Shown here piece after piece: positions 2,541-63,800 of a DNA stretch of 64,000 nucleotides (its first letter is position 1; each line of letters begins with the position of its first letter). Under the pieces are notes generated by a model that had not been told where the DNA came from, did no database searches, and saw only the letters and a program-made list of their open reading frames with translations. Source of the DNA: Ostreococcus lucimarinus. Its lineage: Eukaryota. The position numbers and the translations under genes were made by a program. Where the stretch lies: NCBI GenBank assembly GCA_000092065.1, contig CP000584.1. The stretch is one strand, 5' to 3'.

Positions 2541-5500
2541 TTACTCTGGTTTGAGACTCTCTGGGGAGGAGCCATTGTCTTCGTCGCTGCCAGCTCTAGC
2601 CTCTGCCCTTGACCGTCTTCGGAACACTCCTTGAGCAGACGAAAGCCAGCCAGTTAAAATACTCGCCGACGCCGTGCTGAGTGTTTTTGGACGTCTCGTA
2701 TCGAATGCCAACTCCGGATCGTCCGATGACTCAAGATCGGAAGAGCTACCAGAGTCGGAAGTGAGCGCTTGGCGTTTTGGGCCTCCGGACAGCGGCGTAT
2801 TCGCGAGGCTCATTTCCTTTTCTGCGCGCGAGCGTTGCAACCATTGACTCATCACCGAAGCAGCCACGTAAGAAACTGGTTGGCGTTCTGGTGAGGCGGA
2901 ATCACTGGACAACTGAGAAGACGAATCACCGGAATCATCCGAAAGATTCGCTTTCGGTGCAGACGGAGGCACGCTTGCGCGCATCTCTCTCGCTCTCGTC
3001 AACCAGTCTCGCATGACCATCTTTGAAGTTTGACTCATGTGCTCAGTCGTGGCGTACTTGGGTTCTGTATCAGTGTCACTTTCCGACGAGAAGTCAGTCG
3101 AAGAGAACACAGCAGTATTCGTGAGCGACGATTGTCTGTTTGCACGAAGTTGCTTAACCGCAGCCAACCAACCCGTAAGGGCGGCAGAAGAAGCTTCGGA
3201 AAGATTGACAGGCGGGAACCGTTGGAGACCAGCCTCTGTCTCACTTTCAGACGTATCAGAGAGCATGCGGAGATTTACTCCGCGTCCAGATGCTCTCGAA
3301 GCGGCGTGTGTGAGCCATATTCGCATGGCTGCTTCAGCACCCACTGATAGCTTCACTTCTCCGAAGTCTTCTTCCATATCCGAGTCTGACTCTGACATCT
3401 CACCAGCCTTCATTCTACGACGCACAGCTTTTCCGAGTTTCAGCCGCCTTGCAGTACGAGGAGATAGAATTTCTTGTAACTGATCAATGACCCAGTCCCT
3501 ATTCTTTGACATGAAAAGATGGCGGAACTGATCACTCGTGAGGTCGGCCGTCGTGACATCCATCGTTTGGAGGCTGTCGCCACCGCTATCCTCAATCACG
3601 GCTGCCATTTTAGGTACGAAAATGGAAGAAAAATCCTCATCAAGAGAATCCTCGATGATGATTTCCCCAGACGTGATCGAAGAAGTGATTCGCCAGAGGC
3701 CGAAGTGATTTGCCAAGAGGAGGGCGAGACGCTTTGCCGTGTAAGATGCGCCGAGAACCATGAGAACACAAGCCCAGAAGAGGATATCTTCAAACATGTT
3801 GTAGTTTGCTCGGAGCATCATGGAGAGAGCGAGGACGAACAAGAAAGATCCCGAGCCGCCGAGCGCAAGCACAAAGTAGAACTGACTCGAGAAGCACATT
3901 TGATCAATCGCGCGAAGACCGGGGTCAATTGATTCATCGTAAACGCGTTCGAAACCTTTCCATCGCGACGTACGATTGATGAATCGATATCGAGCGTACT
4001 TCAAATACTCGTACACCTTCCAGCCATGGAACAATTCCTGAATGTTGAAAGTTATGATGTCCATGACAATCCAGAACGGAATAATCACGACAGAGAAGAG
4101 AAGATAAATCAAAAGATCCTTCTTTCTGAAACCGTACAGGTACGACAGTCTCAGCTGGTCGTTGAAATCCCAGAAAAAGAAAATGAAGAAAGGCGTCATG
4201 TAGTTAACAGCCGTGTTTACGCCGTAAGCGGCGAGGAAGCCCATTAAATCTTCGACCAACGTATCTTCTGCATCGATTTTTTCCTCTACTTCGACGTCAT
4301 CGTCGTCACCAAAGTTAAATGGTAACAAATTCATGATGTAGTTCACGACTGCGCTGATTTTGTCTGGGAGTACGAGGGCGCAGTACGCGATGAACGCATC
4401 AAGATATACGTACTCGACCATACCCATGATAGTCTCGAAAAAGAAACCAAGGGTGAAATCTGTAAAGTCATCGGCTCCGATCGTCGCAACGCCAACGGCT
4501 GAAGCAAGTACGACCGATACTGGAGCGAGTAAGAAAGCTTCTCCCAACGCGGTTTCTATCTGCATTTCCATGATTACGTGAGCGACCTTCAAGAGGAAGA
4601 AAATGGTAAAGAACTGGACACCGAACGTATCAGTAAACGAGAACTCAATCAAGAAGACATTTGTCACGTTAACTAAGATATTCATCAAAACGAAATGACT
4701 TCGTTTCCAGACTTCTGGTTTGAACATCACTTCATCGACGTAGCGCTCGTCCTCCAATTCCTTCTCTTCTTCGTCTTTCAGTTCGGCAGGGACTAAGATT
4801 TCGGCGGCGCATCCCATCATATACATACCAGCTGTCAAAAAGCAGACTGCGTATCGACCAGCGGTCGCTTTTTCTACGACAGCTGGATCGATTTCACGGC
4901 CGATATTATCAATACTGATCGGGAACTCTGTAATGATTGGGAACGCGACAAACACGGCCCGGAGTCCGAACTGCGCTGTCGCAAACGGTAACATGCCGAG
5001 CGTGACACCCATCAGAGGTGGACCAATCATTATTCGAAGATATGGTAAGAATCGGAATCTCGGTGGTTCTTTCAATAGTGTGAAGATTCTCACGACCACC
5101 CACACAGAAAAGATCAACAACACGACGAGCATTCCGATCGCAAAGAAAAGCGCCAAGTAGAACAGGAAATCAAAAGCAAAGAAATTGAGCAAATCGAACC
5201 AACCTAGCGCTGATACCGCCACGCTAAGCGTGTAAGTACCATCGTGAGCCGTAGCGGATACGTATTCGTCCATCGTCACCGTGGCCGCGATGATTCGTTT
5301 GTCTGAGTCGGTGAATTGATAGTACAAGATCTCAAATTCAACCTTCGTCGGCATCAAACCAGCCGTCAAAACGAATCCTTCGACGGGCGCAAAAATCACA
5401 GGAATATTTTCTTGCGCCGTGATATCGGCCATGTACTTCTCTTTATTTGCGGCTGGCTCCGTCTGGTCGTTCGCCAGGGCGCTTGCTTCGAAAAGAGCGT

Positions 5501-8500
5501 CTTGACTTTCAGCCTCCGCTGTCAAGTAGAACAAGGTGTCACCCTCAGCTTCGTACCAACGCTTCTTTGCTGAAGCTTCTGTGTAGGCCTCTTCATAGAA
5601 ACAATCGATGGTTAACTCGAGCTCATCTGCAACTGCTGCTTGAACTTGCGGAGAGTATTGATTGATGAAGACTGTTTCTTCTTTTGGCACCAACGTGGTC
5701 TCACCATAACTGACAAACGTGCGATCTTCGCCAAACGTGACGGGCTTGTACGGGTTTTCAGTGAGGTGCGAAAAGAAAATATGACTGTCGAATCCGCGGC
5801 AAGCAGAAAAGAAAGGCAAGTAGTCCATCGCGAACAGCGTCTGGTCAGCCGCCCACAAACCTTCATTGAGCAGATACTTTTCTTGCTCGTACACGTCTGG
5901 AAGTGAAAGAGTGATAGTTTCGTCGGTTTGGCCATCCTCGTTCACTATCACCCAATCCTCTGCTTGCGTCGACGTTAAATCAATGTGCGCTTGGCTGGGA
6001 GAATCTTCGGCTGTTAGCACGTTTTGCTGTCGCAGATATTTGAACTTCTTCCACTCCGCACCATACGTAGAGTTGTAATCGATGGCGGCACGGGCATCAA
6101 GCCTTCTACAACCAGGATCTTGGTTAATATTGGCGCACTCGAAGTAATCGGTCGACACTGATCGATACATTGTCGAGGCCACAGGAGCATTCAAGGGCGC
6201 TTGATACTCTTCGTCAATTTCGAATGGCAAAATGGCGTGCACGGAATACGTCGGCGTTGCACTTGCACGCTCTGGAAATTCGACGTCGATGCAAATACTG
6301 TTCAAGAACGACGCACGATTATCCTCTTGATATCTACCATCCAGCATTCTCAGTTCAATTCTGAAAGGCAAATCATCCAAAGCTTGAATGGATAGTTCGT
6401 GCATACCGCGTTTCCAAACGTAGTTCCCAAAAGTTGGATTCTCAACGTTGTAGCCCGTCGCAGTACCATCGCTATTTCTCGCAAACCAGAACGGCAACTC
6501 TAAAGATTCTTGAGAAGCGGGACACTTCTTTTCCTGCTCCTCACCGGCTATGACCTTCATATTCAGCCATGTTATGCCATCGCCTACATCCCATGGCGGG
6601 CATGGCACGGACTTGTATTCGCTTGCAGGGCACAAGGTGTCATCAATCACTGGATTTGTGAAAATAAGCAGCTCGTAATGTTCGCCGTACTTCAGATTTT
6701 CGTTGATTGTCCGCCAATCAAGCCTCAATTTGGCCGTATGACCTCGAGGTAGAGTGAACTTCATCAAAGGGATATTGTTCTCGTCAACGGCGGCGATGCT
6801 GTTGTCATCTGACAGAATGAATGTCGGGTTCAGGAGTTCCCAATTTTTGTTTGTGCAACTGCCCATGCCCATGTAGTCAAATGGGTCGGTGGGTCCTGTC
6901 GCGTTTGAACTAGAAGTGTTCGTCGTATCGATCTGCAATAGAGTGCGACCTGCAGCGATTTGGCTCTCTACTTCCCGAAGCCATTCAGTGTCACGACCTG
7001 TGGCGTTGATTGTTTTGTAATATGTTTTCTCAATCAAGTCAAAACTGACGGGCATGACTCTCCAGAAAGTGATCAAATCTGCAGAGCACTCGTCCAAACT
7101 TTGTGCCGACGGAGACGACGCCGTCCCTGTGGGACATCGGTTGAGCACTTGTCCAGTTCCCGTCGGACAGAAGAAGCAAGCTTGACACGGGAACTGAGTA
7201 CGCGTAGAGTAAGACGCTCCAGCGGGACAGTAGTAACCAGCGGGACATTTGTTGAAAAATTGTGTTTCCGGAGTAGTACCCGGTCCACAGAAGTATCCGT
7301 CGGGGCACTTTTGTTCGGCAATCGATGTTCGAGCGTCGCACACGTAACCCTCCGGACACAAATCCGCTTCACCTTCTGGATCGAGTTGTAAAAGAACACA
7401 CTTGGAGGCGTCGTAAGCCTCGGTGTTGTCCGCATCGCAATAAGCAGAGTACTCGTTTAACGCAGCTGTACCTTGCCCACGAGGTTTGTTATTGCTCATG
7501 CCATCAATGGCGCACACAAGTCCTGAGTTACACGGCAAACATAACGATTCTTCGGTCAAGCCAATAGATGACGACCAGGTTCCTTTCGGACACTGACGGC
7601 ACGCAATGGAGTCCCGCGCAGAGCGGAAATAACCTGCAGGACATGCGGTTGGTTTGAATGTGCCTTCGTCGACGCACTCGTAGCCTGCAGCGCATGTTAG
7701 ACACTCCTGGAACCCTTCGTAAGGCGTATAGGTGCCCGGAAGACATGTAACGGCTGCGGAGTTACCTTGTCCAGATGTGTATGAACCGCGCGGCGCTGGA
7801 ATCGGAATGTAAGTACGTTTCGGACAGTAATGACCCTCGGTACAAGGTCTCATTGGATTATATACATCCGTCGCCGATTCAGAAACCACAGTGGAATCCC
7901 CTGTAGCCCATTCGCAGAAACTTCCTTCCTTACACGGCTGCGGTTGCTTGAAAGAACCCTCCAACACGATCGAAGTTGTTACACCCTCCGTACAGAACGT
8001 CGTGGGAGGACACGGCTTTGGTCGGAAGTTGTCAACGTTCAACGCAATTGGAGATGCATCGACAATAGCTGCCACATCAATAATTGCGAGAGGATCACGG
8101 GTGACGGTATTTTCAAGGCAGTAATGTCCGGCGGGACAACGGGTACCTGCGACGGCCAGACCTTCAGTGTCGCACACGAAGCCGGGTGTGCACACTTCGG
8201 GCGCCTCACGAGCAAAACCTGGGCAAATCGTGCCTTTTGGACATTTTTGACATGAGTCTTTGCCATAATCGGAGTTGTACTCGCCGGGAAGACATGGTTT
8301 CGGTTCGGCGTTGGCGACACCTGGACAATACATTCGCTTTGGGCATCTCAACTGCTGACCAGGAGGACAGTAATGTCCTGGAGGACACGGACCTACGCCT
8401 TGCGGTGTGATAGAACCAGGTTCACAAACATAACCGGCATAGCACTGCTGTGGAGTGGTGAAATTGTATGCGATACTCGCACTCGACACAACACCGGCGG

Positions 8501-11500
8501 TACAGTACATGCCAAATGGACAAGGTAGTGGCCGCTCGGCAACAGTGAAGTCAGTAAAGTTACTCGTTCGCGTACCCTCCAAACAATAATGGCCGGGTGG
8601 ACATAGTTTATTCGGTACAGTAAGGCCAGTAGAGTCACATACCGCACCCCTCGGACAAATGATCGGGATCATTGAGCCCGCGTCTGGCGAAATGTAGCCC
8701 ACTGGCGTTGGAAGACAGTCAGCTTGGCCGGTTCTGGGTTGGAACGTCCCTGGCGGGCATAAGGTGAAATTTTTTCCACCGCCACAGAATGCGCCTCGTG
8801 GACATAAAATGGCTTCACTTTCAGGGCAGTACGATCCAGACGGACATTGTGCGAAATGGAACAGCAGTCGCTGTTCTGAAAAGTCGACTCCATTTGTGGA
8901 GACTTCGACGAACACTGTACGAGTGCCACTTTGCTCCACGCCCGCAACACAAAGAATAGATCTGGATGACAAGAAAGTTGCTGTCGCAAGCTCTTGTCCA
9001 AATCGACACGTTAAACTGGAAGTATTGACAAAATTTGAACCAGTTATGAAAATGGGGCTTCGACTACCGCTCAGACCAACTTTCGGAATGATACCAGAAA
9101 TTTTTGGTGGAACTTGGTAGACAAACGTTGCCGTGTTGATGGTCGAAAGATCACGATCGTTCCCAGAAATGCTAATATCTGCAATTCCTAATCCTCGTGC
9201 CGGCGTGATGCACGTAAGGACGTCGCTTTGAGTGTTGTATGACGTAATTGGAAAGAAGGTGCCGATGCGGCAACTGTAACGCGCGCCATCGGTCAGGCCA
9301 TTCACAGACACCGAGAGCGTGGTTCCACCGTTCTCCGATCCTGTCTCGGGAGACACAGCGGAAATCATCAAATCGTCAATGTACTCGAACGCGGTACCGT
9401 AACTTGAAATAAAACCCGGATCGTCACGAGGAGCCATTCCAATGCCCACTCGGCGCTCAGTAGACCAAGGTGGAGTGATGCAAAGTCCAAGCGCAGACGA
9501 CACCACGTGCGCGCTTGTTTGCTCGTTGCCAAAGTAACAATAGCCAGACTCGTGCAGATTATCTCCGTCGACATGGAGTACGGTTGTTCCGCTAGCCGTA
9601 CCAATACTAGGGTGAACATTGAGAACGACAGGTGGCATGAAAACTTCAAATCCAATCGGTGTTGCAGCGTCGGGCAAAACCATGATTTCAAGAACAGTAA
9701 AACCGAATCCAGAAGGCGGCGTGTCGCAAGTGATCGTTCGCTGATCTTCAAACGTCGCCTGCGCGACCTGTCCATGTAGTTTGCAGCCTAGGTACGCGCC
9801 GTGTGGCAAGTATATTGCACTGTTGGACATCAACTTCAACGTTGTGTCTCCGGCCGCAACGCTCCTCTTCGGCGAGACAAAAGATGGGACGAGTGGAGTG
9901 AAATATTCAAAGCTACCAACCGATGCGTAATCCTTTGAGTTGTACGTCAAAGAGCCAACAACCACAGTACCATTGAGCCCAGCAGGAGAGATGCAAGTGA
10001 CAGACGTCGACGAACGCTGTTCCGAGGTGCTGATTGGACCTATAGTGCCAAACCGACAGAAGATTTCTTGTTCGGTGGCGTCTTCCGCTAAGTTTCCAAT
10101 ATGAAAAGTGAACAGATTGCCTCCGTTTTCCGACAGATATGGGTTTTCCAGACTCTGACTAAGAAAGTCGAAGTCATCCAAATATTGGAACGCCGCAACT
10201 ATCTCGGAAATATAATTTTCATCATCTCGGGGACTGACGCCAAGCGAAACCATGGGCGAATTCCCACTGAGGACAGGAGAAGTACACACACTGAGAGCGG
10301 ACGAAATGGCGTACGCTGTGGTGTTTTGATCACCGAAATGACAGAAACTTGACTCGTGCAAGTGTTCTCCGGCAACGTGGATCACGGAGGATCCACTGTA
10401 GAACCCGACCGACGGAACCATGCTTGTGACAACAGGCGGCACAAAGATGTCAAAGTCTACCCCGACGCCGTCGAGACCTATGGTAGATAACTCCACAAAT
10501 CCCGCCGAAAGAATCGGAACGGGGCAGCTGAGCGTGTATCTTACACAGTCTCTTTGATTACCGCCGGAACACGTAGATGTCCGAACAGCCTGTGACGATA
10601 GAACGGGAAATAACCCAAACATGCATCCCTTTGGCGTCGAGCTCAAACTGTGCCCGGTGGCTTCAAGGACTACGTCAGCAAGGCCCTCGTTCGAAGCTCT
10701 CCCTGGCACGACATGCATGACCGTCATATCCTCCTCGGAATAAATCAAGACAAAATTGGTAAAGTAAGAAGACGTCAAGTGAGATGACAGCCAGACCCGG
10801 ATGGCATCGGGCGACGTCGGTGAGTGCGCCGGAGTCACGAATTCAAAGCTACTTCCCGAGCTTCGCACATACATCGGGCCGATTGAGCCCACGTGTCCAG
10901 CGGGCGCATCCACCAGTTCTTCAAGTATTCCGACAGAAGTTAGCGAGGAAATTTGTATCGTGTCACCTCCAGAGGTTGCCACCGTTTCCGCGGAGATATC
11001 CAGAAGAGTCGGAGCGGGAATGTAACTGATGGACGTTGTACCCATTTCGTCGTAGTTCAAGCTTCCACCAGTATCGACGTATAACGCAATTCTTCCTTGG
11101 TTATTGGAGAAGTACGGTGACTCGCACGTCACCAAGGTCGACGAATGAACTTTTGCGGGCACATTTACGTCGCCAAAGTAGCACTGCACTGACCCACCAG
11201 CCACATCGAGCAAATCTTCACCACTGATAGTGACTAATTCACCACCAGAATTACTGATCAAAGTTGGGTATGCTGACACTAGAATCGGATCAGGTTGGAA
11301 TAAGAACAACGAATCGGTTTCATCTTTCCCAGGTGAGGCACCTAAACTTATTTGAGCGAACCCTGGGGCGTACGCGGGCATGATACACTCAGATACATAA
11401 GGATTCGTGGAGATGGACGTGGCTGAGACGAAAAATCCAGCGACGTGACACTTAATAGAAGTTTCCATTGGGTTTTCATGGAGAATACGAACAGCAACGC

Positions 11501-14500
11501 CTCCACTCACGGATCCGAATGACGGATACACCGCCGAGGAAGACACTTCGACGGTTTCGTGATAGCTGAAAGGTTGTTTCACCGACGTGAACATCTCACC
11601 GAATAAACGAGCATACATGGGAATGGTACCCGCGATGTGCGCGGGAACTCGACATTCTAGACCATTCCCGGTCAGTTGTCCGATGATGGGACCAAGACTT
11701 CCGAATTTGCAAGCACAATTGTCAAATGATTGCTGATACGGATCAACTTTGTAGTAAATTATCGCAATAGACCCTCCATCTTCGTTACTTTCTTGAGGCG
11801 ACACGTGTAAAGGATTATCTTCCTCCTTGATGTACTCAAAGACAATACCAGAGGACTCAAATTCATCGTCCGTGAGGCTTGTTGAACCACTTGACAGAAA
11901 ACTGAGAACTGCAGAGCCAGCATCATTCGCTGGTTGCTCGATCACAACTAGAGCACTTGACACAAACTGTACCGGAGAGAATTTGGTGCTTCCAAAAACA
12001 AACTTGTTGTGCGTGACTTCGTTGAAGTGAACGCCAGTCAATTTTATTATTTCTCCTCCAGCTTCTGCGCCATCATACGGCTGCAAATTAGTAATCTGCG
12101 CATGAGGTTCATAACTGAGCTGTATTTGCGAAGAATCCCACACGCTCACGTCGTGAATTTGCACCCCAACAGCGACAAAACCGGAGCTGTGCGCTGGAGC
12201 GAGACACAAAACGAGACCGTTTGACTCCACTTTTGCAACTGCCGCGTGAAGATCGAACACGCAAGCGACTGGTAAGGTCGCTAGCGAAGAAGGCAATGTG
12301 CTCGGTGAAATCATAAGCTCCACCAAAGATCCCCCATCTAACGATACCGACGTGCGGTATGGCTCAGTGAGATCTATGTTGGCAATGTATTCGTACAGAA
12401 GTGTCGTCGCCGCATTGTCACGCTCATTCATAGCCACAGTCACTGGAACTGTCGCAGGTGAATGGGCAGGCAGGATACATTCAACTTTTTCGGATGAACC
12501 CTGCGTAAGGGAAATTCCAGAGATCGTACCAACTTTGCATGATATTACGCTCAAATCCGTGGAAAAGTCTCCATAGATGTCAACCACAGCACCGCCGGCT
12601 TCCAATCCTCGCGCAGCTGGGTGATCTATTTCGAGTCCAGGAAGAAGAATGAAAGTTATTTGGAAATCCGCACTTTGTTCCACGTCGTTGTATACAAGTT
12701 GTAAAGCAGTGTCATCCTTGCCTTCGGGCGTCACACACACGACGAGCGCCGAAGAAATTACGTGTATAGATGACTTTGCAGTACCTGCACTTGTCGTGTA
12801 ACCGCACGAAGCACTGTAATTCGTACCGCCCCAGATCATATTGGATCCCGTCACATATACCAAACTTCCCCCAATCGTTGGGAATGTGAGTGGAGTCGCT
12901 CTCATGAGTTTCGGTTTGGCAACATAATGGAACTCGAGAGCTGACGACGTAAAATCTTGCAAGTTCATAGAGACATCGATCACCGTGAATCCAGATTTAG
13001 ACGCCGGAGCATTGCAAACAGTATTTGATCCGAAGATGAATGCATTCGTAGTGGTTGAACCAAACCTACACGAAAGATGACTTCCGTAGAAGTTTTCACC
13101 GAACAAAGTCACCGAGGTGCCGCCGGTAACAAAACTCGATTCTGGTATTGTCATTGATGACAACGTCGCGATCACCTTGTACTCAAATGTAGCCGCCGAT
13201 TGACTCAGCTTAATTTCAAACGCAGTATTGTGATGGAACACGTTGACTGGGACTGAACCTGCGCTGTGCGCAGGAGAGACGCAAGACGCCGCATTCATGG
13301 ACAACCATCGTCCAAGAACATTCGAAATGGTTCCAATCCTGAAAGCCAGTGAAACGTCGTTTCGAAACGCCAGGCCATCAAATGAAAGAATAGTACCACC
13401 TTGAGACGGCCCAGTCTTGGGAACTACCCGATGTATGACCGAGGAAGATGTGTTCATGAACTCAAACGGTAAGCCTGGAACCGACCAATCAAAGGCATTG
13501 TTTGAGACTGCAAGGTCATGGTATCCGACCTCCATGCTCGGAGATTCGCACATCACTTGCGAGGGTGAAATAAACGCTGCACGGAATGGAGCTAATGTAC
13601 CGAATCGACACAAAGAAGAGGGAGAAAAGTGATCACCATACACCACGATGGCTGTCCCACCGATGGACGGGCCAGACAGCGGAAGCAAGTGATCCAGCAA
13701 CACCTTCCTCGTTAAAATATCATTTGCATCGGTACTGGAGACGATGTTATTGCCGGAGCTATCGACAATTCTTATATCGTACTCGTTTACGCCGTTGTTA
13801 TCTTCGGGTAACCCACAGAGAACAGAACCATCGCTGAGGACGATGCCTGGGACCAAGGCGTCACCATTTCCAAGATTGCAATACACATCTTGACCAGGAA
13901 CAAATCCCGTACCAGTCACAGTTGCGGTATTATTATCGTTGTTTATAATTGTGGTCACTGACGCTTCAGTAGTATACAAGAAAGTCACCTGCGGACCATC
14001 AGCAAACATGGCGCCGAACTCGCTGACCATGCCGATGTCAAAATTCACCCAACCCTCTACGTGCGCAGGCGCTAGGCACCTATATTCATCTGCAGCGATC
14101 CATTCGCCCACGACAGGACCAATTGAGCCAAACTTACACGCGAGATCGTGTGAATCACTGAAAGAGTGCCCGGCAGCTGTGACTGTGGTACCGCCCTCGA
14201 CTAAACCCATTGATGGTGATAGAGCCGTGACCACTGGAGGTGGATCAAACAAAAATTGCGGCTTCATCGCTAATTCTACTGCGGTTGCTACTACCGATAC
14301 GTCCAGTGCATATGCACCTTCAAACATGCTAGGCGTTTCGCAAATCATCAACGCCGAGGAAACATGTGTTGCCGCTACGGTAGTCGTACCAAACCTACAG
14401 ACAGGATTGTCTTGCAGCAAATGCTCCCCTTCTATGTGGACTAATGTTCCACCTCCTATGGCACCAACTCTGGGCGCTATTCTAGTAATTTCAATCACGT

Positions 14501-56434: not shown

Positions 56435-58030
56435 GTGCGCCTCGCGACGCCACACCGCGCTCGTCGACGATCGACGTCGCGCCGGACGCGCGCGATGCAC
56501 AGAACATTCGTCAGGTCGGCCATGCACCGCCGCGTCGTCGCCGCCGCCGCCGCGCGCACGCGCACGACGTCATCCTCGTCCTCGTCCTCGCCGCTCGCCG
56601 CGAGCGTCGTCGCGCGACGTTGGACGCCCGGACGTCCCGCGCAGCGCGCGACGCTCGCCACGCGAGCGAGCGCAACGAGCGAAGCGCCCGCGTTGAATGC
56701 GTCGGGGGAGACGAACAAGGCGCTGGCGTGGAAGGCGGCGATCGATTTCAAGTTTGTGCGGGACAACGCCGAGTTGGTGCAAAAGAACGCGACGACGAGA
56801 AAGGTGGACGTGGATGTGCAGGAAATCATCGCGAAATACGAGGCGTTGAACGCGTTGAACTTTAAGTGCGATGAACTTCGCGAGCGTCGAAACGCGAACG
56901 CGAAGAGCATGAAGGGGAAGATGGATAAAGAGGTTCGGGACGGGTTGATTGCCGAGGGCAAGGCGATTAAGGACGAGCTCGCGGCGCTCGAAGGCGATCT
57001 CGCCGGACTCGAGAGCGAGTTACAAACCATGGCGCAGAGGTTGCCAAACTTGACACACCCGGATGTGCCGATCGGCAGCGAAGAAAATACGGTGACTCGG
57101 GCGACGGTGGGTGAGCAGCGCGCGTTTACGTTTCCAGTGCAAAATCACGTCGACGTCGGCGAAAAGCTTGGGATGTTCGACTTCGAGACTGGAAGCAAGG
57201 TGAGTGGTAGTCGTTTCGTCTACCTCACCGGTGTTGGAGCTATGCTTGAGTTAGCTCTGATCAACTGGGCGTTCGCCAAGGTTTTGAGCAAAGGTTTCAA
57301 GCCCATGATGGTGCCAGACATGGTGCGTAGCAGCGTGGTGGAGAAGTGCGGATTCCAGCCGCGGGCAGAGAACACGCAAGTGTATAGCATTGAAAACTCC
57401 GATCTCTGTATGGCGGGTACGGCTGAACTATTATTGGGTGGAGTATACATGGATGAAGTTGTGGAAGAATCGCAACTCCCTATCAAAATGGCGGCCTTCA
57501 GTCATTGTTTCCGCACTGAAGCCGGCGCCGCCGGCGCGCAGACTCGGGGCATGTATCGTTTGCATCAGTTTAGCAAGGTGGAGATGTTCGTCGTGGCCAC
57601 GCCTGAGCAATCTGACGCACTTCACGAGGAGCTCATCGGCATCGAGACTGAAATGTTTGCAGAGCTCGGCTTCCACTTCAAAGTTTTGGACATGCCCACG
57701 GAGGACTTAGGCGCACCGGCATATCGCAAATTCGACGTCGAAGCGTGGATGCCCGCGCTCGAACGGTACGGCGAAATTTCGAGTGCCTCGAACTGCACGG
57801 ATTATCAAGCGAGGCGGCTGAATATAAAGTACAGACCGAATGCCGTCGATGGCAAGAAGCAGCCGCTTATGCACTGCCACACTCTCAACGCGACGGCGTG
57901 CGCGATTCCTCGTATGATCGTCACCATCCTCGAAAATTTCCAGCAAGAAGATGGAAGCGTCGTCGTACCCGAGCCGTTGCGACCGTACCTCGGTGGCATG
58001 GATGTTTTGCGTCCGGAAGAGGGGAAATAG
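56435..58030 (+). CDS. SARS2: Seryl-tRNA synthetase (organellar type, with presequence; alternative start 56495)
   Basis: Class II motifs. GAMLELALINWAFAKVLSKGFKPMMVPDMVRSSVVEKCGF...FSHCFRTEAGAAGAQTRGMYRLHQFSKVEMFV...CHTLNATACAIPRMIVTILENFQQEDGSVVVPEPLRPY. Confidence 0.9.
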   Translation: MRLATPHRARRRSTSRRTRAMHRTFVRSAMHRRVVAAAAARTRTTSSSSSSSPLAASVVARRWTPGRPAQRATLATRASATSEAPALNASGETNKALAWKAAIDFKFVRDNAELVQKNATTRKVDVDVQEIIAKYEALNALNFKCDELRERRNANAKSMKGKMDKEVRDGLIAEGKAIKDELAALEGDLAGLESELQTMAQRLPNLTHPDVPIGSEENTVTRATVGEQRAFTFPVQNHVDVGEKLGMFDFETGSKVSGSRFVYLTGVGAMLELALINWAFAKVLSKGFKPMMVPDMVRSSVVEKCGFQPRAENTQVYSIENSDLCMAGTAELLLGGVYMDEVVEESQLPIKMAAFSHCFRTEAGAAGAQTRGMYRLHQFSKVEMFVVATPEQSDALHEELIGIETEMFAELGFHFKVLDMPTEDLGAPAYRKFDVEAWMPALERYGEISSASNCTDYQARRLNIKYRPNAVDGKKQPLMHCHTLNATACAIPRMIVTILENFQQEDGSVVVPEPLRPYLGGMDVLRPEEGK

Positions 58031-58107
58031 GCAGCTGCAGCATATATTTCGTGTGATAATATAAGAGTTATTGATGAATTGACCGATTTACATCGAGCGC
58101 GTTGCGA

Positions 58108-59400
58108 TTAATTGTTCTTCCAGTTCTCGATCCACGCTTGTGCCTCATCAGCCTTAGTGGCAGACTTGGTCGGCTTGGCTGGAGCGCTGGCCACGGTTTT
58201 CGCCGGGGTGCTAGACACTGTGGTAGTCTTCGTCGCCGCCGTCGATACGGACGGTTGACCCTCTCTGCGGTTTGAGTATGCGAACAGACCGAGACCGAGA
58301 CCGGTGGCAATGATGGAGAGCGGGTTCACGCGGCTCACCTTCTTCGGGCGCGGAGCCGGCTTGGCCGCCTTCTTCACCGCCGGCTTGGCAACCTTCTTCG
58401 TGACGGACTTGACCGGTCGGGTAACCTTCTTGGTAGATTTGGTCTTCGCCTTCGCCGCCGCCGGCTTGGTGGTCGTCGCCGTTGCCGCCGCCGGCGTCGT
58501 GGTCTTGATCGGCGTCGTCACCGGCTTTGCCGCCGCCGGCGTGGTGGTCGCCGCCTTGGCCGGCTTGGCGGTCGCCGCCGCCTTGGTCGCCGCCGGCGTC
58601 TTTGTCGCCGCCGCCTTGGTCGCCGCCGGCGTCTTTGTCGCCGGGGCAGCCTTCGGCGCCGGGGCCGTCACAGTCGGGGCCGACTTCTTGGCCGCCGCCG
58701 GCTTTTTCGTCGTCGGCTTCTTGGTCGCAGCGCCCGCCGCTGCCGCCGCCTTCGTTTGGGCCGGAGTCTTCGTCTTCTTCACTTCTGCGGCAGACTTAAG
58801 TGCAGTTCCCTTCAATCGGTTCGGTTCCGCGCGCTTCGGCGCAACCTTTTGGTATCGCGCCGCAGCCGCTTGCTCCAACTCCTTGCGTTGCTTCGGAGTG
58901 AGCGTCGCCTTGGCCGACGTGCGCTTCACCTTGATTTGCACATCCGGCGCAACCTTAGCTTTCGTGGACTTCACCTTTGCCGCAGACTGAACGCCCTCTC
59001 TTCGCGCCGCCGGCGACGTCGCCGTCGTGGCCAACGCCGGCTCCACGGACGTCGTCGCGAGCGTCAGCGCGAGCGCCGCCGCGAACGCCTTCCCCGCTGC
59101 GCCTTCTTCGCTCGCACTCGCGCGCACGACCACCGCGCTTCGCGCGTTGGAACGTCGAACCTACGCGTGTAATAGTTATCTTCGCCGTCAGTCGTCCGTC
59201 TCGCGCGTCTTCGCTCGCGACGCGTCGCAAATCGCCGATAAAGTCGCGACGCGTCCCGATAGATCGTCTTCGCCTCGAAACAACCATCGGCAACGCTCGC
59301 GCGCGTTCTCGAGCGCGATGCGGGCGCGCGCGCGCGCGCGTACCTTGACAACCTTCGTGGGCGTCACTCGCGCGGTGAGCGCGTTCATCGAGGCCAACAT
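58108..59400 (-). CDS. Lys/Ala/Thr/Pro-rich basic low-complexity protein (paralog 1), with transit-peptide-like N-terminus and one C-terminal hydrophobic segment. Proposed 2 exons: join(59400..59344,59160..58108)
   Basis: Main ORF 58108..59133. Upstream mini-exon MLASMNALTARVTPTKVVK with GTACGC donor and CGCGTAG acceptor, in phase. Conserved block AFAAALALTLATTSVEPALATTATSPAARREG is shared with the paralog. Confidence 0.5.
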
Positions 59401-59759
59401 GATCGTCTGAGCGTCGAGAAATAGCGAAAGCCATGACGTCATGCCGACGTCGATCCCCAGCCTCGCCGGCACGCGGGCGCTTTTTGGTCTTTGCGGGACG
59501 CTCGCGGGAAGACGGAGCGAGCGATGGAGCATCGGGACGCTCGAATCGAGAAAAGCGAGCGAACGGCGCGCGCGGTGATCGTAGATAGAGGATATGGACA
59601 GAATGCGTATTGAGAAAGTACTCTCGAGTTCGCCAGTCGACGAGGCGCCGCGGGCGCTAGCGCCCCGGCGAGTCGAGAGAATTCAGAGCCACATTTGCCA
59701 TTTATGCACGCGCGATCAAATATCGACAGCGCGCAATTGAGAGATCACACGCGTATAGC

Positions 59760-60546
59760 TTACTTTCTGCGTTGCGCCGGGGAAGTCGTCTTGGACTTCT
59801 TCGCCGCGACGGGGGCAGTCTTGGAGGACTTGCGAACGGTCTTGACCGGCTTGCGCGCGGACTTGACGGTGCGCTTGACGGTCTTGCGCGCGGCCGGGGC
59901 GGCGGCGGTGCTCGTCTTGGAGCGAACGCGCTTCGTCGTGCGCTTCTTGGTCGTCGCAACCGGGGTGGTCTTCTTCGCCTTGTACGCGGTGGCCTTCTTA
60001 GCCTTCACCCCCGGGGCCGCCGCCGGAGCCGGCTTCGCCGTCTTCGGGGACACCGCCGCGGCCGAGCGCTTGCCCGATCGTCGCGCCGCCGGGGACGTCG
60101 TGGACGTCGCGAACGACGGTTCGACCGACGTCGCGGAGAGCGTCAACGCGAGCGCCGCCGAGAACGCGGCCCGCGCGAAGGACGCGCCTTGAGTTTCGCC
60201 CTCCTCCTTCGCGGCGCGCACCGCGAAGCTCTTCGCCTGCGTCTTGCGTCCCTGTTCGCGTCGCGTTCGCGTTTCGCCCATCGTCAGTCCTCTCGCGGGT
60301 GTTTCTCTCGCGTCTCGCGGGTGTTTCTCTCGCCCGTCCCGTCTCGCTCGCGGTCCCGTCTCGCTCGCGCCTCGTGGATAGGGTCCGCGACGATCGCGCG
60401 CTCGCGCGTCGTCCCTCGCCGCGTCTCGGGTCCGCGCGTCCCCCCTGCGCGACGCGGTCTCCGGTTCGCGTTCGGGCGCGCACCTGCGCGGACTTGGTCG
60501 CGACGCGCGCCCTGAGCGCCGTCATCGAGGTGGACATGGTGAACAT
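59760..60546 (-). CDS. Lys/Ala/Thr-rich basic low-complexity protein (paralog 2). Proposed 2 exons: join(60546..60484,60236..59760)
   Basis: Main ORF 59760..60281. Upstream mini-exon MFTMSTSMTALRARVATKSAQ with GTGCGC donor and ACGCAG acceptor, in phase. Conserved block AAFSAALALTLSATSVEPSFATSTTSPAARRSG. Confidence 0.5.
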
Positions 60547-60895
60547 CGTGCGAGCGTGCTTGCGTGCGGGAAGTGCGGATTCGGATTATTCGGCGGCGGG
60601 ATTCGATGCGCGGCGGGCGATCGCGGGGGGGTCACGACGAGTCACGAACGGTCGATGACGATTTTCGTTCGTTTTCGACCTCGAAAAAGCGCGCCGCGCG
60701 AAAAGACGCGCGGGTCCGGCGATCGATCGGATCGATCGCGCGCGCGATCGACGCCCGCGCGCGGTCGAACTTCGAACGGCGCGCGGCGATGGATGCGGCG
60801 ATGGATGCGCGCGTGGAACGATGCGGATGCGCGCGCGGATGACGGCGTGACGACGGGAGACGACGACGGCGCGACCGGGCGTCGCGTCGGTCGAC

Positions 60896-63800
60896 ATGGC
60901 GCCCGAGCGCGGCGCGCGCGGTGGACGCGGACGCGGGACGACGACGACGACGGGGGCGCGATGCGACGGCGAGGGACGACGCGCGACGACGCGCGGACGG
61001 GGACGGGGACGGGGACGCGGGCGAGGCGGGGGCGCGAGCGCGAGCGCGAGCGCGGAGGCGCTGACGGAGGGTGAGAAAGAGGCGGCGCTGGCGCGGTCGA
61101 GGGCGCGCGAGGAAGCGCAAGCGGCGAAGAGGGCGGCGGAGGAGGCGACGAGGACGGAGGCGGCGGCGGCGAAGGCGCGCGCGGAGCTCGAGGCGAAGCG
61201 ACGGGAGATCGAGCGGGCGCGAGAGACGCGAGCGAAGGCGCGCGAGGGGAACGCGTCGCCGTCGAGGCCGGACGAACAAGCGCTCAAGGGGAGAGATTCG
61301 AGCATTAAGAAGAACACGACGCTGATTAAAAAGTTGAGGACGATTACGGAGGAGAACGGGGCGGCGCTCGCGCAAGAGTTGAGCAGGGTGAACGTGAGTA
61401 AGTACGTCACCGAGGCCGCGACGGCGTGCGTGGAGGGTAAGATGAAGAGCTCGGACGTCAACGCGGCGGTGGAGATCATTTCTTGCATGCACCAGACGTA
61501 CGCGGATTTCGCGGCGCCGCTCATCGCGGCGTTGAGCGCGTACGTATTGCCGCCCAAGCCCGAGACGTTGTTGAAGATGGCAGAGGGCGAGGTAGAGGCG
61601 TTGCCGTCGCCGTTGCAGCGTCGAACCAAATTACGATTGTTCATGGAGCTTCATCTCGTCGGTGTGTGCCCCGAAGTAAAGCCCGTGCTCGACGCCGTGA
61701 AGGAGCTGGCGCGCTTGGAGTACAAGACGGCGCCGGATTTATACCAACACTCGCTCAGCACGCTGGCAAGTTTCGCCAAGACATTTGCCGTGGAGATGCT
61801 CGGTGCCGAACCCGAGGTCGAGATGGCGTCCAACGATTTTATCCTGGCGCCAGATGTGCAAAAGGCGTTTCGGACGACGCTGAATGAGTATTGCGACAGA
61901 CTCTTCTTCGTGCTCATGGAGGCGTTTTCAGCCGTCACAGCGCAAGAACGCGAGATGTCGCGGTTATTAGAACGCACGGGTGCTATTAGTGAGGCAGCAT
62001 CGGTGGAGTTTGCGGCTCTCACAAAGGTGTTTGATGGGTTGTTGAAGGGGGCAACGACGCTCGCAGAAGCGCTCAGTCGCGAGCTTCCAGAGATGAAGAA
62101 GCAAGTGGAAGAGAAGGTCGCACGAGGAGGCACGATGGAGCTGCATCGTGGAGGTGTGAAATCGTCGGGCGAGCGCAGCGATATGTGGGAAGACGAGGAA
62201 CAGCAGCACTTTTACGAGACACTTCCAGATTTGCGAGCCTCGATTCCCGCGGTGCTCCTGGTGAACGCGACGAACGAAAACGAAACGGAAGCCGAGCGTC
62301 TGAAACGCGAGAGGGAAGAAAACGCAGAAGGGCGAAGCGCAAAAGTCGAAGGTTTAATCATGCGTTTGTCCGATTCGCTGTCGAAAGACAAGGCTGATAC
62401 GATTTGTACCGACTTCTGTTACATCGCCGCTCGAGGAGGACGAAGACGGTTGATTCAAGAATTTTTGAGCGTACACCGCTCGGAGGTAGATCGCATTCCA
62501 TTCTATGGTAGAATAATAGCCACACTCGCGAATGTGTTCGATGACATCGCGCCCGCCGTTTCCGAACCGCTGAAGAATGAGTTCTATAATTTGGTCAAGA
62601 AGGGCAAACGAGCAAATCTAAGCGAGCGCTTGAAGAATATCAAATTCATCGGCGAGCTCATCAAGTTCAAAGTTTTCGACGATTTGGCGGTGTTTGAGAT
62701 CGTGAAAAGTCTTTTAGATGATTTTCATGGTGACAATGTCGACGTTCTTTGCTGTTTATTTGACGTAGCGGGCTATTACTTGACTCGAACGCCGTCGACG
62801 TCGAAACGTATGGGAAGCATTTTGGACATCTTCCTGCGCCTAAAAGCTGTGAGCAAGTTGGACTCTCGGCAGTGTGCTTTGGTGGATAGCGCTTATTATA
62901 AATGTAGGCCAGTGCAGAGGGTCGTAGTGGAAAAGATACGACCACCATTGCACGAATATATTCGAGAGCTCATCTATTTACAGTTGTCAAAGCACACGCT
63001 CGACAAAGTGGCGACGCAACTTCGTAAACTTCCTTGGGATGAAACTGAACCTTACTTGTTGAAAAGACTCCTCAAAGTGAGTAAAGGGAGATACGCATCC
63101 GTACCACTCGTCGCAGCGTTGATTGCGAGATTGTCACAATACTACCCGACTCTCGCAGTGCGAGCGCTTGATACATTGCTAGAGGATATTCGATTTGGTT
63201 TAGAGACAAACGAAACGTGGATGCATCAGCGCCGTGTTGCGAACATGAGACTCCTCGCACTTCTGTACAAAGAGCGCGTCGCGCTCTTCCGTGAGCTTAT
63301 GGATACGCTCTACTTGATAATTTCTATCGGCTACGACGGACGCGAAGCGCCTGACTATCTGACGGATACGATTCGTTTGCGCATGGTTTGTACGCTTTTG
63401 GAAACCGCGTTCAAGGGAAGAGGAGCCATTAGTTACGCGCAGAAGAAAGAAATCGACAGGTTCTTGATCTTTTTTCAGCGATACGCGTTGACAAAAGATG
63501 TGGCGTTAGATATATCTAACGACGTCATGGAGTTGTTGTCCTCGATGAATCCGCGAATGAAAATTTGCGAGACGTACGAAGAGGCGAACGGTGAGTGCCA
63601 AAAGCTTCTTGAAAAGCCGAGCATTACCCCTGGTGGCATGGAACCAGTGATGGAGGAGGAGGAAGAAGAAGAAGAAGAAGAAGAAGAAATGGACGTCTGC
63701 GAAGAGAGCGAAGAGAGCGAAGAGAGCGAAGAGAGCGAAGAAGAACACGAAGATGAAGATATGGACGATGTGTCGTCGGATGAATCAGAAGACGAATCTA

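Follow-up and report, generated by a model that had tools for sequence, protein, structure and literature searches.

The 64-kb stretch of Ostreococcus lucimarinus DNA analyzed here (the window) carries, between positions 58108 and 60546, a head-to-tail pair of minus-strand genes, here called P1 and P2. By analogy with a helix recently reported to dock ferredoxin-NADP reductase (FNR), P1 is a candidate tether of FNR at the membrane in green algae. Both genes are split by a single intron behind a very short first exon. In P1, exon 1 (59344..59400, minus strand; 19 codons, MLASMNALTARVTPTKVVK) supplies the start of a transit-peptide-like presequence and is followed by a 183-nt intron (59161..59343, GTACGC...GTAG) and by exon 2 (58108..59160; 350 codons and the stop codon); P2 has the same order on the same strand, with exon 1 at 60484..60546 (21 codons, MFTMSTSMTALRARVATKSAQ), a 247-nt intron at 60237..60483 (GTGCGC...GCAG) and exon 2 at 59760..60236. 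Assembled from the minus strand, the spliced P1 product has 369 residues, a pI of 11.4 and 64% Ala, Lys, Thr and Pro, and that of P2 has 179 residues and a pI of 12.0. The exons join in phase in both genes. Exon 2 of P1 contains no in-frame ATG, and the unspliced frame that opens at the exon-1 ATG is interrupted by stop codons, so that a eukaryotic gene at this place needs the splice. The sequence-only reading from which this work started had proposed these joins; on rereading the minus strand of 57600-61000 and reassembling the exons, we found all its coordinates and sequences to be exact.

Additional support for the gene models came from the introns themselves. All five introns compared, from the window and from two syntenic genomes (L007 and L008, described below), begin with GT, end with AG and carry, 24-47 nt upstream of the AG, the octamer GACTGACG, which contains a CTRAY-type branch-point consensus; it lies at 59186-59193 in the P1 intron, with the branch A 27 nt before the AG, and at 60282-60289 in the P2 intron. 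The octamer occurs 10 times in the window vs. 3.9 expected. Two of these belong to the P1 and P2 introns as their branch-like boxes; the remaining eight may mark further introns. BLASTP (5e-24, composition filters off) shows the N-terminal block that the two proteins had been said to share: P1 and P2 align across ~85 residues from the start of exon 1, so that the duplication took in mini-exon and intron alike. Nucleotide identity of exons vs. introns across species was 65-78% everywhere and hence non-discriminating in this GC-rich DNA, for which reason the gene models were judged by their phase, by conservation of the proteins and by the branch box. The GC content at third codon positions in the proposed frames is 0.79 and 0.91, vs. 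0.71 for the adjoining seryl-tRNA synthetase gene. The P2 intron also contains two perfect short tandem duplications, of 22 nt x2 and 17 nt x2, at 60291-60333 and 60336-60369.

The locus is syntenic in three Mamiellales genomes, with the common gene order leucyl-tRNA synthetase - Upf2 - gene(s) - seryl-tRNA synthetase - flavoprotein - SWEET - COPI. A first, word-indexed homology search with full-length P1 was swamped by low-complexity candidates and returned only two matches, P0001 and P0002 (238 aa, 42% identity), and these turned out to lie at the syntenic site of a second Ostreococcus-like genome (contigs L005-L007), between Upf2 and the seryl-tRNA synthetase gene, with Cmc1 placed between flavoprotein and SWEET. 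Contig L007 harbors the same tandem pair at this place, with mini-exons and introns in phase: the P2 orthologue comprises exon 1 at 6481-6543 (MFTMSTSLTTLKAQVAAKAVA), a 261-nt intron and an exon 2 that extends to 7269, and the P1 orthologue comprises exon 1 at 7754-7819, a 166-nt intron in phase 0 and exon 2 at 7986-8717. Exon 1 of P2 and its counterpart in L007 are equal in length and 78% identical in nucleotides. In the third and more distant genome (L008, 52-57% GC) there is one P1-type gene only, arranged alike with a mini-exon of 21 codons at 5737-5799 and a 126-nt intron in phase 0. Just ~130 nt (5604-5737) separate its start codon from the Upf2-like gene, leaving no room for P2, and from the lack of a P2 copy in L008 we date the duplication to the Ostreococcus lineage. 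By comparison of these three syntenic genomes, the tandem duplicate P2 is restricted to the two Ostreococcus-like ones. The P1-type genes thus have a conserved phase-0 intron behind a mini-exon of 19-22 codons. The sequence-only reading had staked its gene models on the upstream mini-exons being conserved and in phase in related genomes, and both L007 and L008 show them so, with both GT...AG joins recurring in L007 and the P1-type join in L008. The ratio of nonsynonymous to synonymous substitution (dN/dS) between the window and L007 is 0.44 for P1 and 0.46 for P2; within P2 it is 0.20 for residues 22-85 and 0.75 for the basic tail. As for transcripts, two catalogue fragments (P0067 and P0009, source 'merc') span P1 from its transmembrane helix toward the C-terminus, with P0067 reaching the end.

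To place P1 among known proteins, a profile of P1 and its orthologue was searched exhaustively against 1.84 billion representative proteins, yielding 18 significant matches. Eight of these, aligned with P1 and its orthologue (n=10), comprise one architecture in a fixed order: a transit-peptide-like N-terminus, a short Ala/Leu/Val/Thr-rich hydrophobic segment that ends, in most members, in AxA or SxA, a YxKVEPxR block, a low-complexity spacer (Lys/Ala/Ser/Pro) that varies greatly in length, a transmembrane helix, a flexible Ser/Ala/Gly-rich tail and one to three helices of the pattern EAQxWIxxWK, the last copy being the extreme C-terminus of the protein. The 'predicted protein' C1MPT1 of Micromonas pusilla CCMP1545 is a member; all others are unnamed or 'hypothetical'. 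With the trimmed family alignment as query we obtained 14 unnamed matches, and with a double-motif profile only short unnamed fragments. Pfam has no family for P1, P2 or eight relatives, the domains of a Tetraselmis protein discussed below excepted. Judged by these alignments, P1 belongs to a conserved, unnamed, Pfam-less family of green algae. In one further called ORF (P0066, 189 aa), a Lys/Ala/Pro-rich stretch with a match to PF07382 of Pfam (histone H1-like) is fused to the C-terminus, with two motifs, of a Micromonas-type member; this is probably an artefact of frame or of ORF calling at a related locus.

Within P1, the family block (residues 106-138, LTPKQRKELEQAAAARYQKVAPKRAEPNRLKGT; 58804..58902, minus strand, as are all P1 coordinates that follow) is predicted to be lumenal and follows the pattern Y-x-K-V-E-P-x-R-x(4)-R-F-x-G-T-E, which reads RYQKVAPKRAEPNRLKGT in P1; its Y, V, P and R are nearly invariant in the alignments. 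Ahead of it, residues 64-82 (TTATSPAARREGVQSAAKV; 58972..59028) are common to P1 and P2 and specific to the two Ostreococcus-like genomes (window and L007). The transmembrane anchor (residues 297-315, VNPLSIIATGLGLGLFAYS; 58273..58329) is preceded by a conserved KKVSR and followed by NRR. It had been picked out by the sequence-only reading and is real, being conserved in the orthologues and modeled as a helix in the one for which an AlphaFold2 model was inspected. Behind the anchor, residues 316-356 (58150..58272) form a Ser/Thr/Ala/Pro-rich flexible tail, predicted to be stromal; the orthologue model is of low confidence (by its pLDDT score) and without secondary structure there. Residues 357-369 (DEAQAWIENWKNN; 58111..58149) form the C-terminal helix motif EAQxWIxxWK.

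The part of P1 that gives it its basic character is at the same time the least conserved one. Residues 139-293 (58339..58803) make up a Lys/Ala/Thr/Pro-rich low-complexity spacer with in-frame repeats of 33 nt and ~45 nt (Tandem Repeats Finder), 155 residues long in P1 vs. ~30 in the L007 orthologue. The label of a family of basic disordered proteins, given to the pair by the sequence-only reading, hence does not hold, since the Lys-rich spacer is variable, short in orthologues and not family-defining. Its length also varies among population contigs: L004 carries an extra 15-residue unit PVTAPIKTTTPAAA and L003 an extra ATKTPAATKAA (both at ~12030-12400). Apparent large deletions at the locus in BLAST of metagenome contigs proved to be mostly scaffold N-gaps, and only small in-frame repeat indels were clean. 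Several scaffolds have N-gaps exactly at the P1 repeat region, where assemblies break, indicating that the locus is hard to assemble. The seryl-tRNA synthetase gene that adjoins the pair (56495-58030, plus strand) is found with identical sequence on contigs in 731 collection blocks, and those that were read are metagenome assemblies from ENA. Its protein clusters at ≥90% identity with A4RVT4 of O. lucimarinus CCE9901, which places the window within Ostreococcus, in or near clade A. On a larger scale, the GC content of the window is heterogeneous, with 47-51% across ~10 kb at 4001-14000 vs. 63-68% at 58001-62000. Low-GC outlier regions are known in Ostreococcus genomes.

The presequences point to the thylakoid. 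In five gene models the N-terminus is rich in Ala, Arg, Ser, Thr and Val, has 0-1 Asp/Glu in its first 29-35 residues and ends in VRA or ARV, in keeping with the transit-peptide-like start noted from the sequence alone. Behind it, residues 43-63 of P1 (KAFAAALALTLATTSVEPALA; 59029..59091) form a weakly hydrophobic signal-type segment ending in A-L-A, a predicted thylakoid processing site, and residues 43-64 of P2 (60108-60173, minus strand) form a segment of the same type ending in S-F-A. These segments are short (~15 residues) with Kyte-Doolittle values of ~1.3-1.6 (mean of 1.3 over 17 residues in P1), and hence fit the h-region of a signal better than a permanent anchor. The h-regions end in ALA, SFA, AFA, SYA, AHA, ALA and ASA, with two of the 10 aligned members lacking a clear AxA; the n-region of the Ostreococcus and Micromonas members has a single Lys, and the distant members P0018 and P0061 carry GRRDVFGA(V/L)AAG...A(S/L)A, which is a textbook twin-arginine thylakoid transfer signal. 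The earlier suggestion of a lumen signal made of a hydrophobic stretch and an A-x-A site is thereby strengthened, given AxA or SxA in most members and the twin-arginine form in these two.

Based on the twin-arginine relatives, the AxA ends in most members and the short, weak segment, we read the presequence as bipartite: the protein would be imported into the stroma of the chloroplast and then inserted into the thylakoid, with the signal being cleaved after A63 (ALA63) in P1 and after A64 in P2. P1 would then be a type-I protein, with its N-terminal part in the lumen and a C-terminal tail of ~54 residues in the stroma. Stromal exposure of the P1 motif is suggested by the cleavable or twin-arginine signal and the single transmembrane helix, and opposed by the positive-inside rule. 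In agreement with a stromal tail, the recognizable presequences of other carriers of the motif are simple and transit-peptide-like, or the carriers are the N-termini of light-harvesting complex proteins, and the motif would be stromal in these. The basic region of P1 is flanked by a cleavable signal of the lumen type on one side and by a stop-transfer anchor on the other and is hence predicted to lie in the lumen, for which reason the nucleoid association once suggested for the pair is disfavored.

The most informative feature of P1, overlooked in the sequence-only reading, is the DEAQAWIENWK helix at its end. P1 terminates in ...KSATKADEAQAWIENWKNN, and the motif pattern occurs once only in all six frames of the 64-kb window; across the aligned family, the core A-Q-x-W-I-x-x-W at the very C-terminus does not vary. 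When the literature was searched in full text for printed forms of this helix, there was a single relevant paper (bioRxiv 10.64898/2026.04.07.716946, April 2026), in which the N-terminal helix of Chlamydomonas reinhardtii Lhca4 (peptide SAVPENVKEAREWIDAWKSKSGG) was reported to bind FNR 1:1 with a KD of 126 +/- 58 nM, binding was weakened by swapping of acidic residues, and diffuse FNR density was seen above Lhca4 in cryo-electron microscopy. That study covered Lhca proteins only, obtained high-confidence models just in Chlamydomonadales and Sphaeropleales, and mentioned neither Mamiellales nor non-Lhca carriers (bioRxiv 10.64898/2026.04.07.716946). Lhca4 and the P1 family share the core E-A-(R/Q)-x-W-I-(D/E)-x-W-K (Lhca4 ENVKEAREWIDAWK, L007 orthologue NAAEAQEWIDNWK, P1 KADEAQAWIENWK). 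Compared with the ten-residue core EAREWIDAWK of Lhca4, the L007 orthologue has EAQEWIDNWK in two copies (8/10) and P1 has EAQAWIENWK (6/10), the other differences being conservative with the exception of E to A. The AlphaFold2 model of the orthologue P0002 is disordered overall (mean pLDDT 46). Its transmembrane segment and the two copies of the motif are modeled as helices, those of the motif spanning residues 199-212 and 220-237 and having the highest confidence of the whole model (pLDDT 68-80). The core E-A-x-x-W-I-(D/E)-x-W-K, flanked by acidic residues, reads DEAQAWIENWK in P1, AEAQEWIDNWK in both copies of the L007 orthologue and KEAREWIDAWK in the Lhca4 peptide. As judged by sequence and by predicted helicity, the terminal helix of P1 matches the FNR-binding motif of the Lhca4 type.

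Among the matches of the exhaustive profile search were also proteins whose sole likeness to P1 is this helix. One of these, P0005 of Tetraselmis striata (eukprot EP00873_P043168, 900 aa), consists of a CBM_20 starch-binding domain (residues 74-160), twenty 20-residue repeats NVLEAQRWIAAWRATQEVPA (~297-700) and a 6-phosphogluconolactonase-type domain (715-850), and could be a multivalent scaffold on starch. P0011 (163 aa) starts like a transit peptide, has two motifs and is tail-anchored by a transmembrane helix at its C-terminus; P0010 and P0014, the latter derived from an MMETSP transcriptome, have two to three motifs and a Cys-rich end 'GCTD..NYDP..DDGSCLY'; and P0020, P0099-P0104 and P0107 are small proteins with one to three copies of EAQxWIxxW[KR], several of them two-motif. 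One motif carrier is labeled as a Prorocentrum minimum transcript. This distribution over unlike scaffolds suggests that EAQxWIxxW[KR] is a portable docking motif.

The attachment of FNR at the thylakoid influences how electrons are split between NADPH production and cyclic flow. It is held there by TROL and Tic62 in land plants and by a domain of FNR itself in cyanobacteria. For the plant FNR tethers, no orthologues had yet been identified in Chlamydomonas as of 2017 (PMC5683061). Given that the helix of P1 matches the Lhca4-type motif reported to dock FNR, our preferred reading is that P1 would hold FNR at the membrane. More specifically, P1 may be a nuclear-encoded type-I thylakoid protein whose terminal amphipathic helix, sharing its short linear motif with the N-terminal helix of Lhca4, would dock FNR, with the flexible stromal tail serving as a leash that keeps the enzyme at the thylakoid membrane. 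This proposal rests on analogy with Lhca4, and we consider the chances for and against it to be evenly balanced.

A number of observations weigh against a type-I FNR tether. P1 has replaced two acidic features of Lhca4, namely the E before the first W by A and the upstream 'ENVK' by 'TKAD', and the link to FNR consists of a motif of ~10 residues and one unreviewed preprint from a distant green alga. The signal of the Ostreococcus proteins is without a twin arginine. Charge is the chief problem within the model: the proposed topology would put a net +51 (P1) or +36 (P2) in the lumen, contrary to the positive-inside rule, and the flank of the P1 transmembrane helix is more basic on its N-terminal than on its C-terminal side. 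In addition, P0005, with its starch-binding domain and 20 motif copies, resembles a scaffold or linker more than an FNR dock. Owing to the problem of lumenal charge, two rival explanations were kept, one with an inverted topology and the other with a different partner.

With a different partner, the architecture of P1 would be as proposed, and EAQxWIxxW[KR] would serve in chloroplasts as a docking tag of general use, by which P1 tethers Rubisco, a starch-associated protein, a photosystem or the cytochrome b6f complex to the thylakoid. In favor of such a tag are the modular use of the motif by unrelated proteins, often in several copies (P0005, P0011, P0010 and P0014), and a parallel with the way in which the Rubisco-binding motif of Chlamydomonas is deployed on SAGA and RBMP proteins (PMC10473226); the evidence for FNR comes from one species in one preprint. 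However, the sole experimental datum for the motif is FNR binding, at ~126 nM and 1:1, and the enzyme domain to which it is fused in Tetraselmis is from a pathway that yields NADPH, in at least equally good accord with FNR. Rubisco as the partner is opposed by the sequence of the motif: the consensus [D/N]W[R/K]xx[L/I/V/A], attributed to Meyer et al. 2020, is not matched by P1, in which NWK is followed by NN and the stop, nor by its orthologue, with NWKPSG and NWKKSQ. Ostreococcus is not known to have a pyrenoid. The Rubisco-binding motif has not been found outside Volvocales (PMC10473226). Overall, we deem a partner other than FNR unlikely. We find it somewhat less likely still that the topology is inverted, with the N-terminal segment being an uncleaved anchor, the Lys-rich region exposed in the stroma to bind DNA, RNA or acidic membrane surfaces as an organizer of nucleoids or membranes in the manner of PEND or MFP1, and the C-terminus of P1 placed in the lumen; this is in essence the nucleoid association suggested by the sequence-only reading. 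The inverted arrangement would satisfy the positive-inside rule for the charge that follows the segment, agrees with the histone-H1-tail-like composition (and with the match of one mis-called relative to PF07382), and would make P2, which has no second transmembrane helix, a simple N-anchored basic protein. Opposed to this are the shortness and weak hydrophobicity of the segment, its AxA or SxA end in most members, the canonical twin-arginine export signal in P0018 and P0061, a basic spacer that is not conserved (net ~+3 by hand count in the Micromonas-type P0012), the stromal location of the motif in its other carriers, and the lack of a Linker_histone or other DNA-binding domain in Pfam searches.

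The two further alternatives are of a different kind, one being compatible with FNR tethering and the other denying the genes altogether. P1 might be the prasinophyte counterpart of PETO, subunit V of cytochrome b6f, a reading that could be true alongside the FNR tether. The shorter members of the family (precursors of 171-200 aa) resemble PETO in size, single membrane pass and Ser/Thr-rich tail, PETO may likewise be made with a bipartite presequence, and it is a thylakoid phosphoprotein found with FNR in a putative cyclic-flow supercomplex; on the other hand, the family profile searches gave no match named PETO, b6f or Chlamydomonas, most matches being without name or organism, and we think the identity improbable. 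Alternatively, the open reading frames could be artefacts, i.e. chance frames in GC-rich low-complexity DNA or decaying pseudogenes. Such a view could draw on the extremely biased composition, on the lack of any match to the exact spliced P1 and P2 models in a collection of 15 billion proteins, and on the presence of long ORFs on the opposite strand (e.g. 58304..58990, plus strand, 228 aa). These antisense frames are the usual by-product of GC-rich low-complexity DNA. More importantly, gene order, frame, intron position and terminal motif are kept in three genomes, dN/dS is 0.2-0.46, transcript-derived fragments exist and the family numbers 18 significant representatives, making an artefact exceedingly improbable.

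P2 differs from P1 in having no transmembrane helix, no helix motif and no YxKVEPxR family block. It keeps the mini-exon, the intron, the presequence, the TSPAARR(S/E)G block and the basic tail; following the signal-type segment, residues 65-85 contain the shared TSPAARRSG block and residues 86-179 form a tail rich in Lys, Thr, Ala and Arg. P2 is predicted to be a small, very basic, disordered and soluble protein of the lumen. The most economical reading is that it is a sub- or neofunctionalized duplicate, released as a soluble basic peptide where the N-terminal domain of P1 resides.

Going beyond P1, we surmise, more tentatively than for P1 itself, that EAQxWIxxW[KR] may be a reusable 'FNR address tag' of green algae, marking photosystem I via Lhca4, the bulk thylakoid via the P1 family as the missing analogue of TROL and Tic62, other sites via tail-anchored proteins, and starch via the Tetraselmis CBM20 protein; evolution would have attached the motif to different scaffolds, placing NADP(H)/ferredoxin chemistry where it is needed. 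As part of the same view, which we regard as possible and rather doubtful, the lumen would hold, in P1 and P2, a disordered polypeptide without precedent, one that is highly basic and expands rapidly. What is new here, in silico, is the Lhca4-type helix on a new scaffold, linking an uncharacterized family of prasinophyte membrane proteins to a recent mechanism of FNR docking. If P1 does bind FNR, then 1) prasinophytes, ecologically dominant among marine picoplankton, would own a dedicated tether; 2) the Lhca4 helix would be a portable motif and not a peculiarity of one antenna protein; and 3) FNR-docking sites in algal proteomes could be mapped by means of a simple sequence pattern. In O. tauri, the targeted replacement of genes has been reported.

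In its proposed topology, P1 resembles the type-I thylakoid proteins cytochrome f and PsaF, which are made with bipartite presequences, and C-tail-anchored substrates of the twin-arginine pathway, all having a cleavable signal that ends in AxA, an N-terminal domain in the lumen, a single stop-transfer helix and, in the stroma, a short tail. In contrast to these proteins, P1 has no cofactor or folded lumenal domain, its lumenal part being mostly disordered and very basic by prediction. For histone H1-like and plastid nucleoid proteins, the marks looked for were a DNA-binding domain or a basic region exposed to the stroma: Pfam finds no Linker_histone or other domain in P1 or P2, and the basic region is predicted to be lumenal, by a topology that is itself a prediction. 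A likeness in design exists with the Rubisco-binding-motif proteins (EPYC1, RBMP1/2 and SAGA1/2), in which a short helical W-[K/R] motif is carried, often at the very C-terminus and often multivalently, by transmembrane, starch-binding and repeat proteins.

Among systems that handle FNR, the job proposed for P1 is akin to that of TROL and Tic62, in which a membrane anchor presents a short C-terminal FNR-docking peptide, sometimes in several copies, to the stroma on a flexible region. P1 is not homologous to these, its docking element being an amphipathic alpha-helix. Pfam detects neither a rhodanese-like domain (TROL) nor an NAD(P)-binding dehydrogenase domain (Tic62) in P1, P2 or the orthologues, and the Ser/Pro-rich, polyproline-type FNR-binding repeat (…LSPYxxYxDLKPP…) is absent from P1 and P2 on direct reading; with no matching domain or repeat, P1 as a TROL or Tic62 homologue was ruled out. 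The TROL/Tic62-type and Lhca4-type FNR motifs are likewise described as distinct (bioRxiv 10.64898/2026.04.07.716946). PETO, specific to green algae, is a transmembrane phosphoprotein of the thylakoid that associates loosely with cytochrome f and, on the stromal side of b6f, with subunit IV. It is recovered in the same fractions as FNR, PGRL1 and ANR1 and has a promoting effect on cyclic electron flow. By description P1 is similar to it in its restriction to green algae, its predicted single pass through the thylakoid, its Ser/Thr-rich region predicted to be in the stroma and, for the role proposed, the company of FNR. With Lhca4, finally, P1 has in common a predicted helix on a flexible linker beside a thylakoid membrane anchor, the helix being stromal in Lhca4. 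P1 has no chlorophyll a/b-binding domain in Pfam and, with a single transmembrane helix, is not an antenna protein of the photosystem I light-harvesting complex. Rather than an antenna with an N-terminal helix, it is a dedicated single-pass protein of Mamiellophyceae that carries the helix at the C-terminus, in one to three copies across its family.

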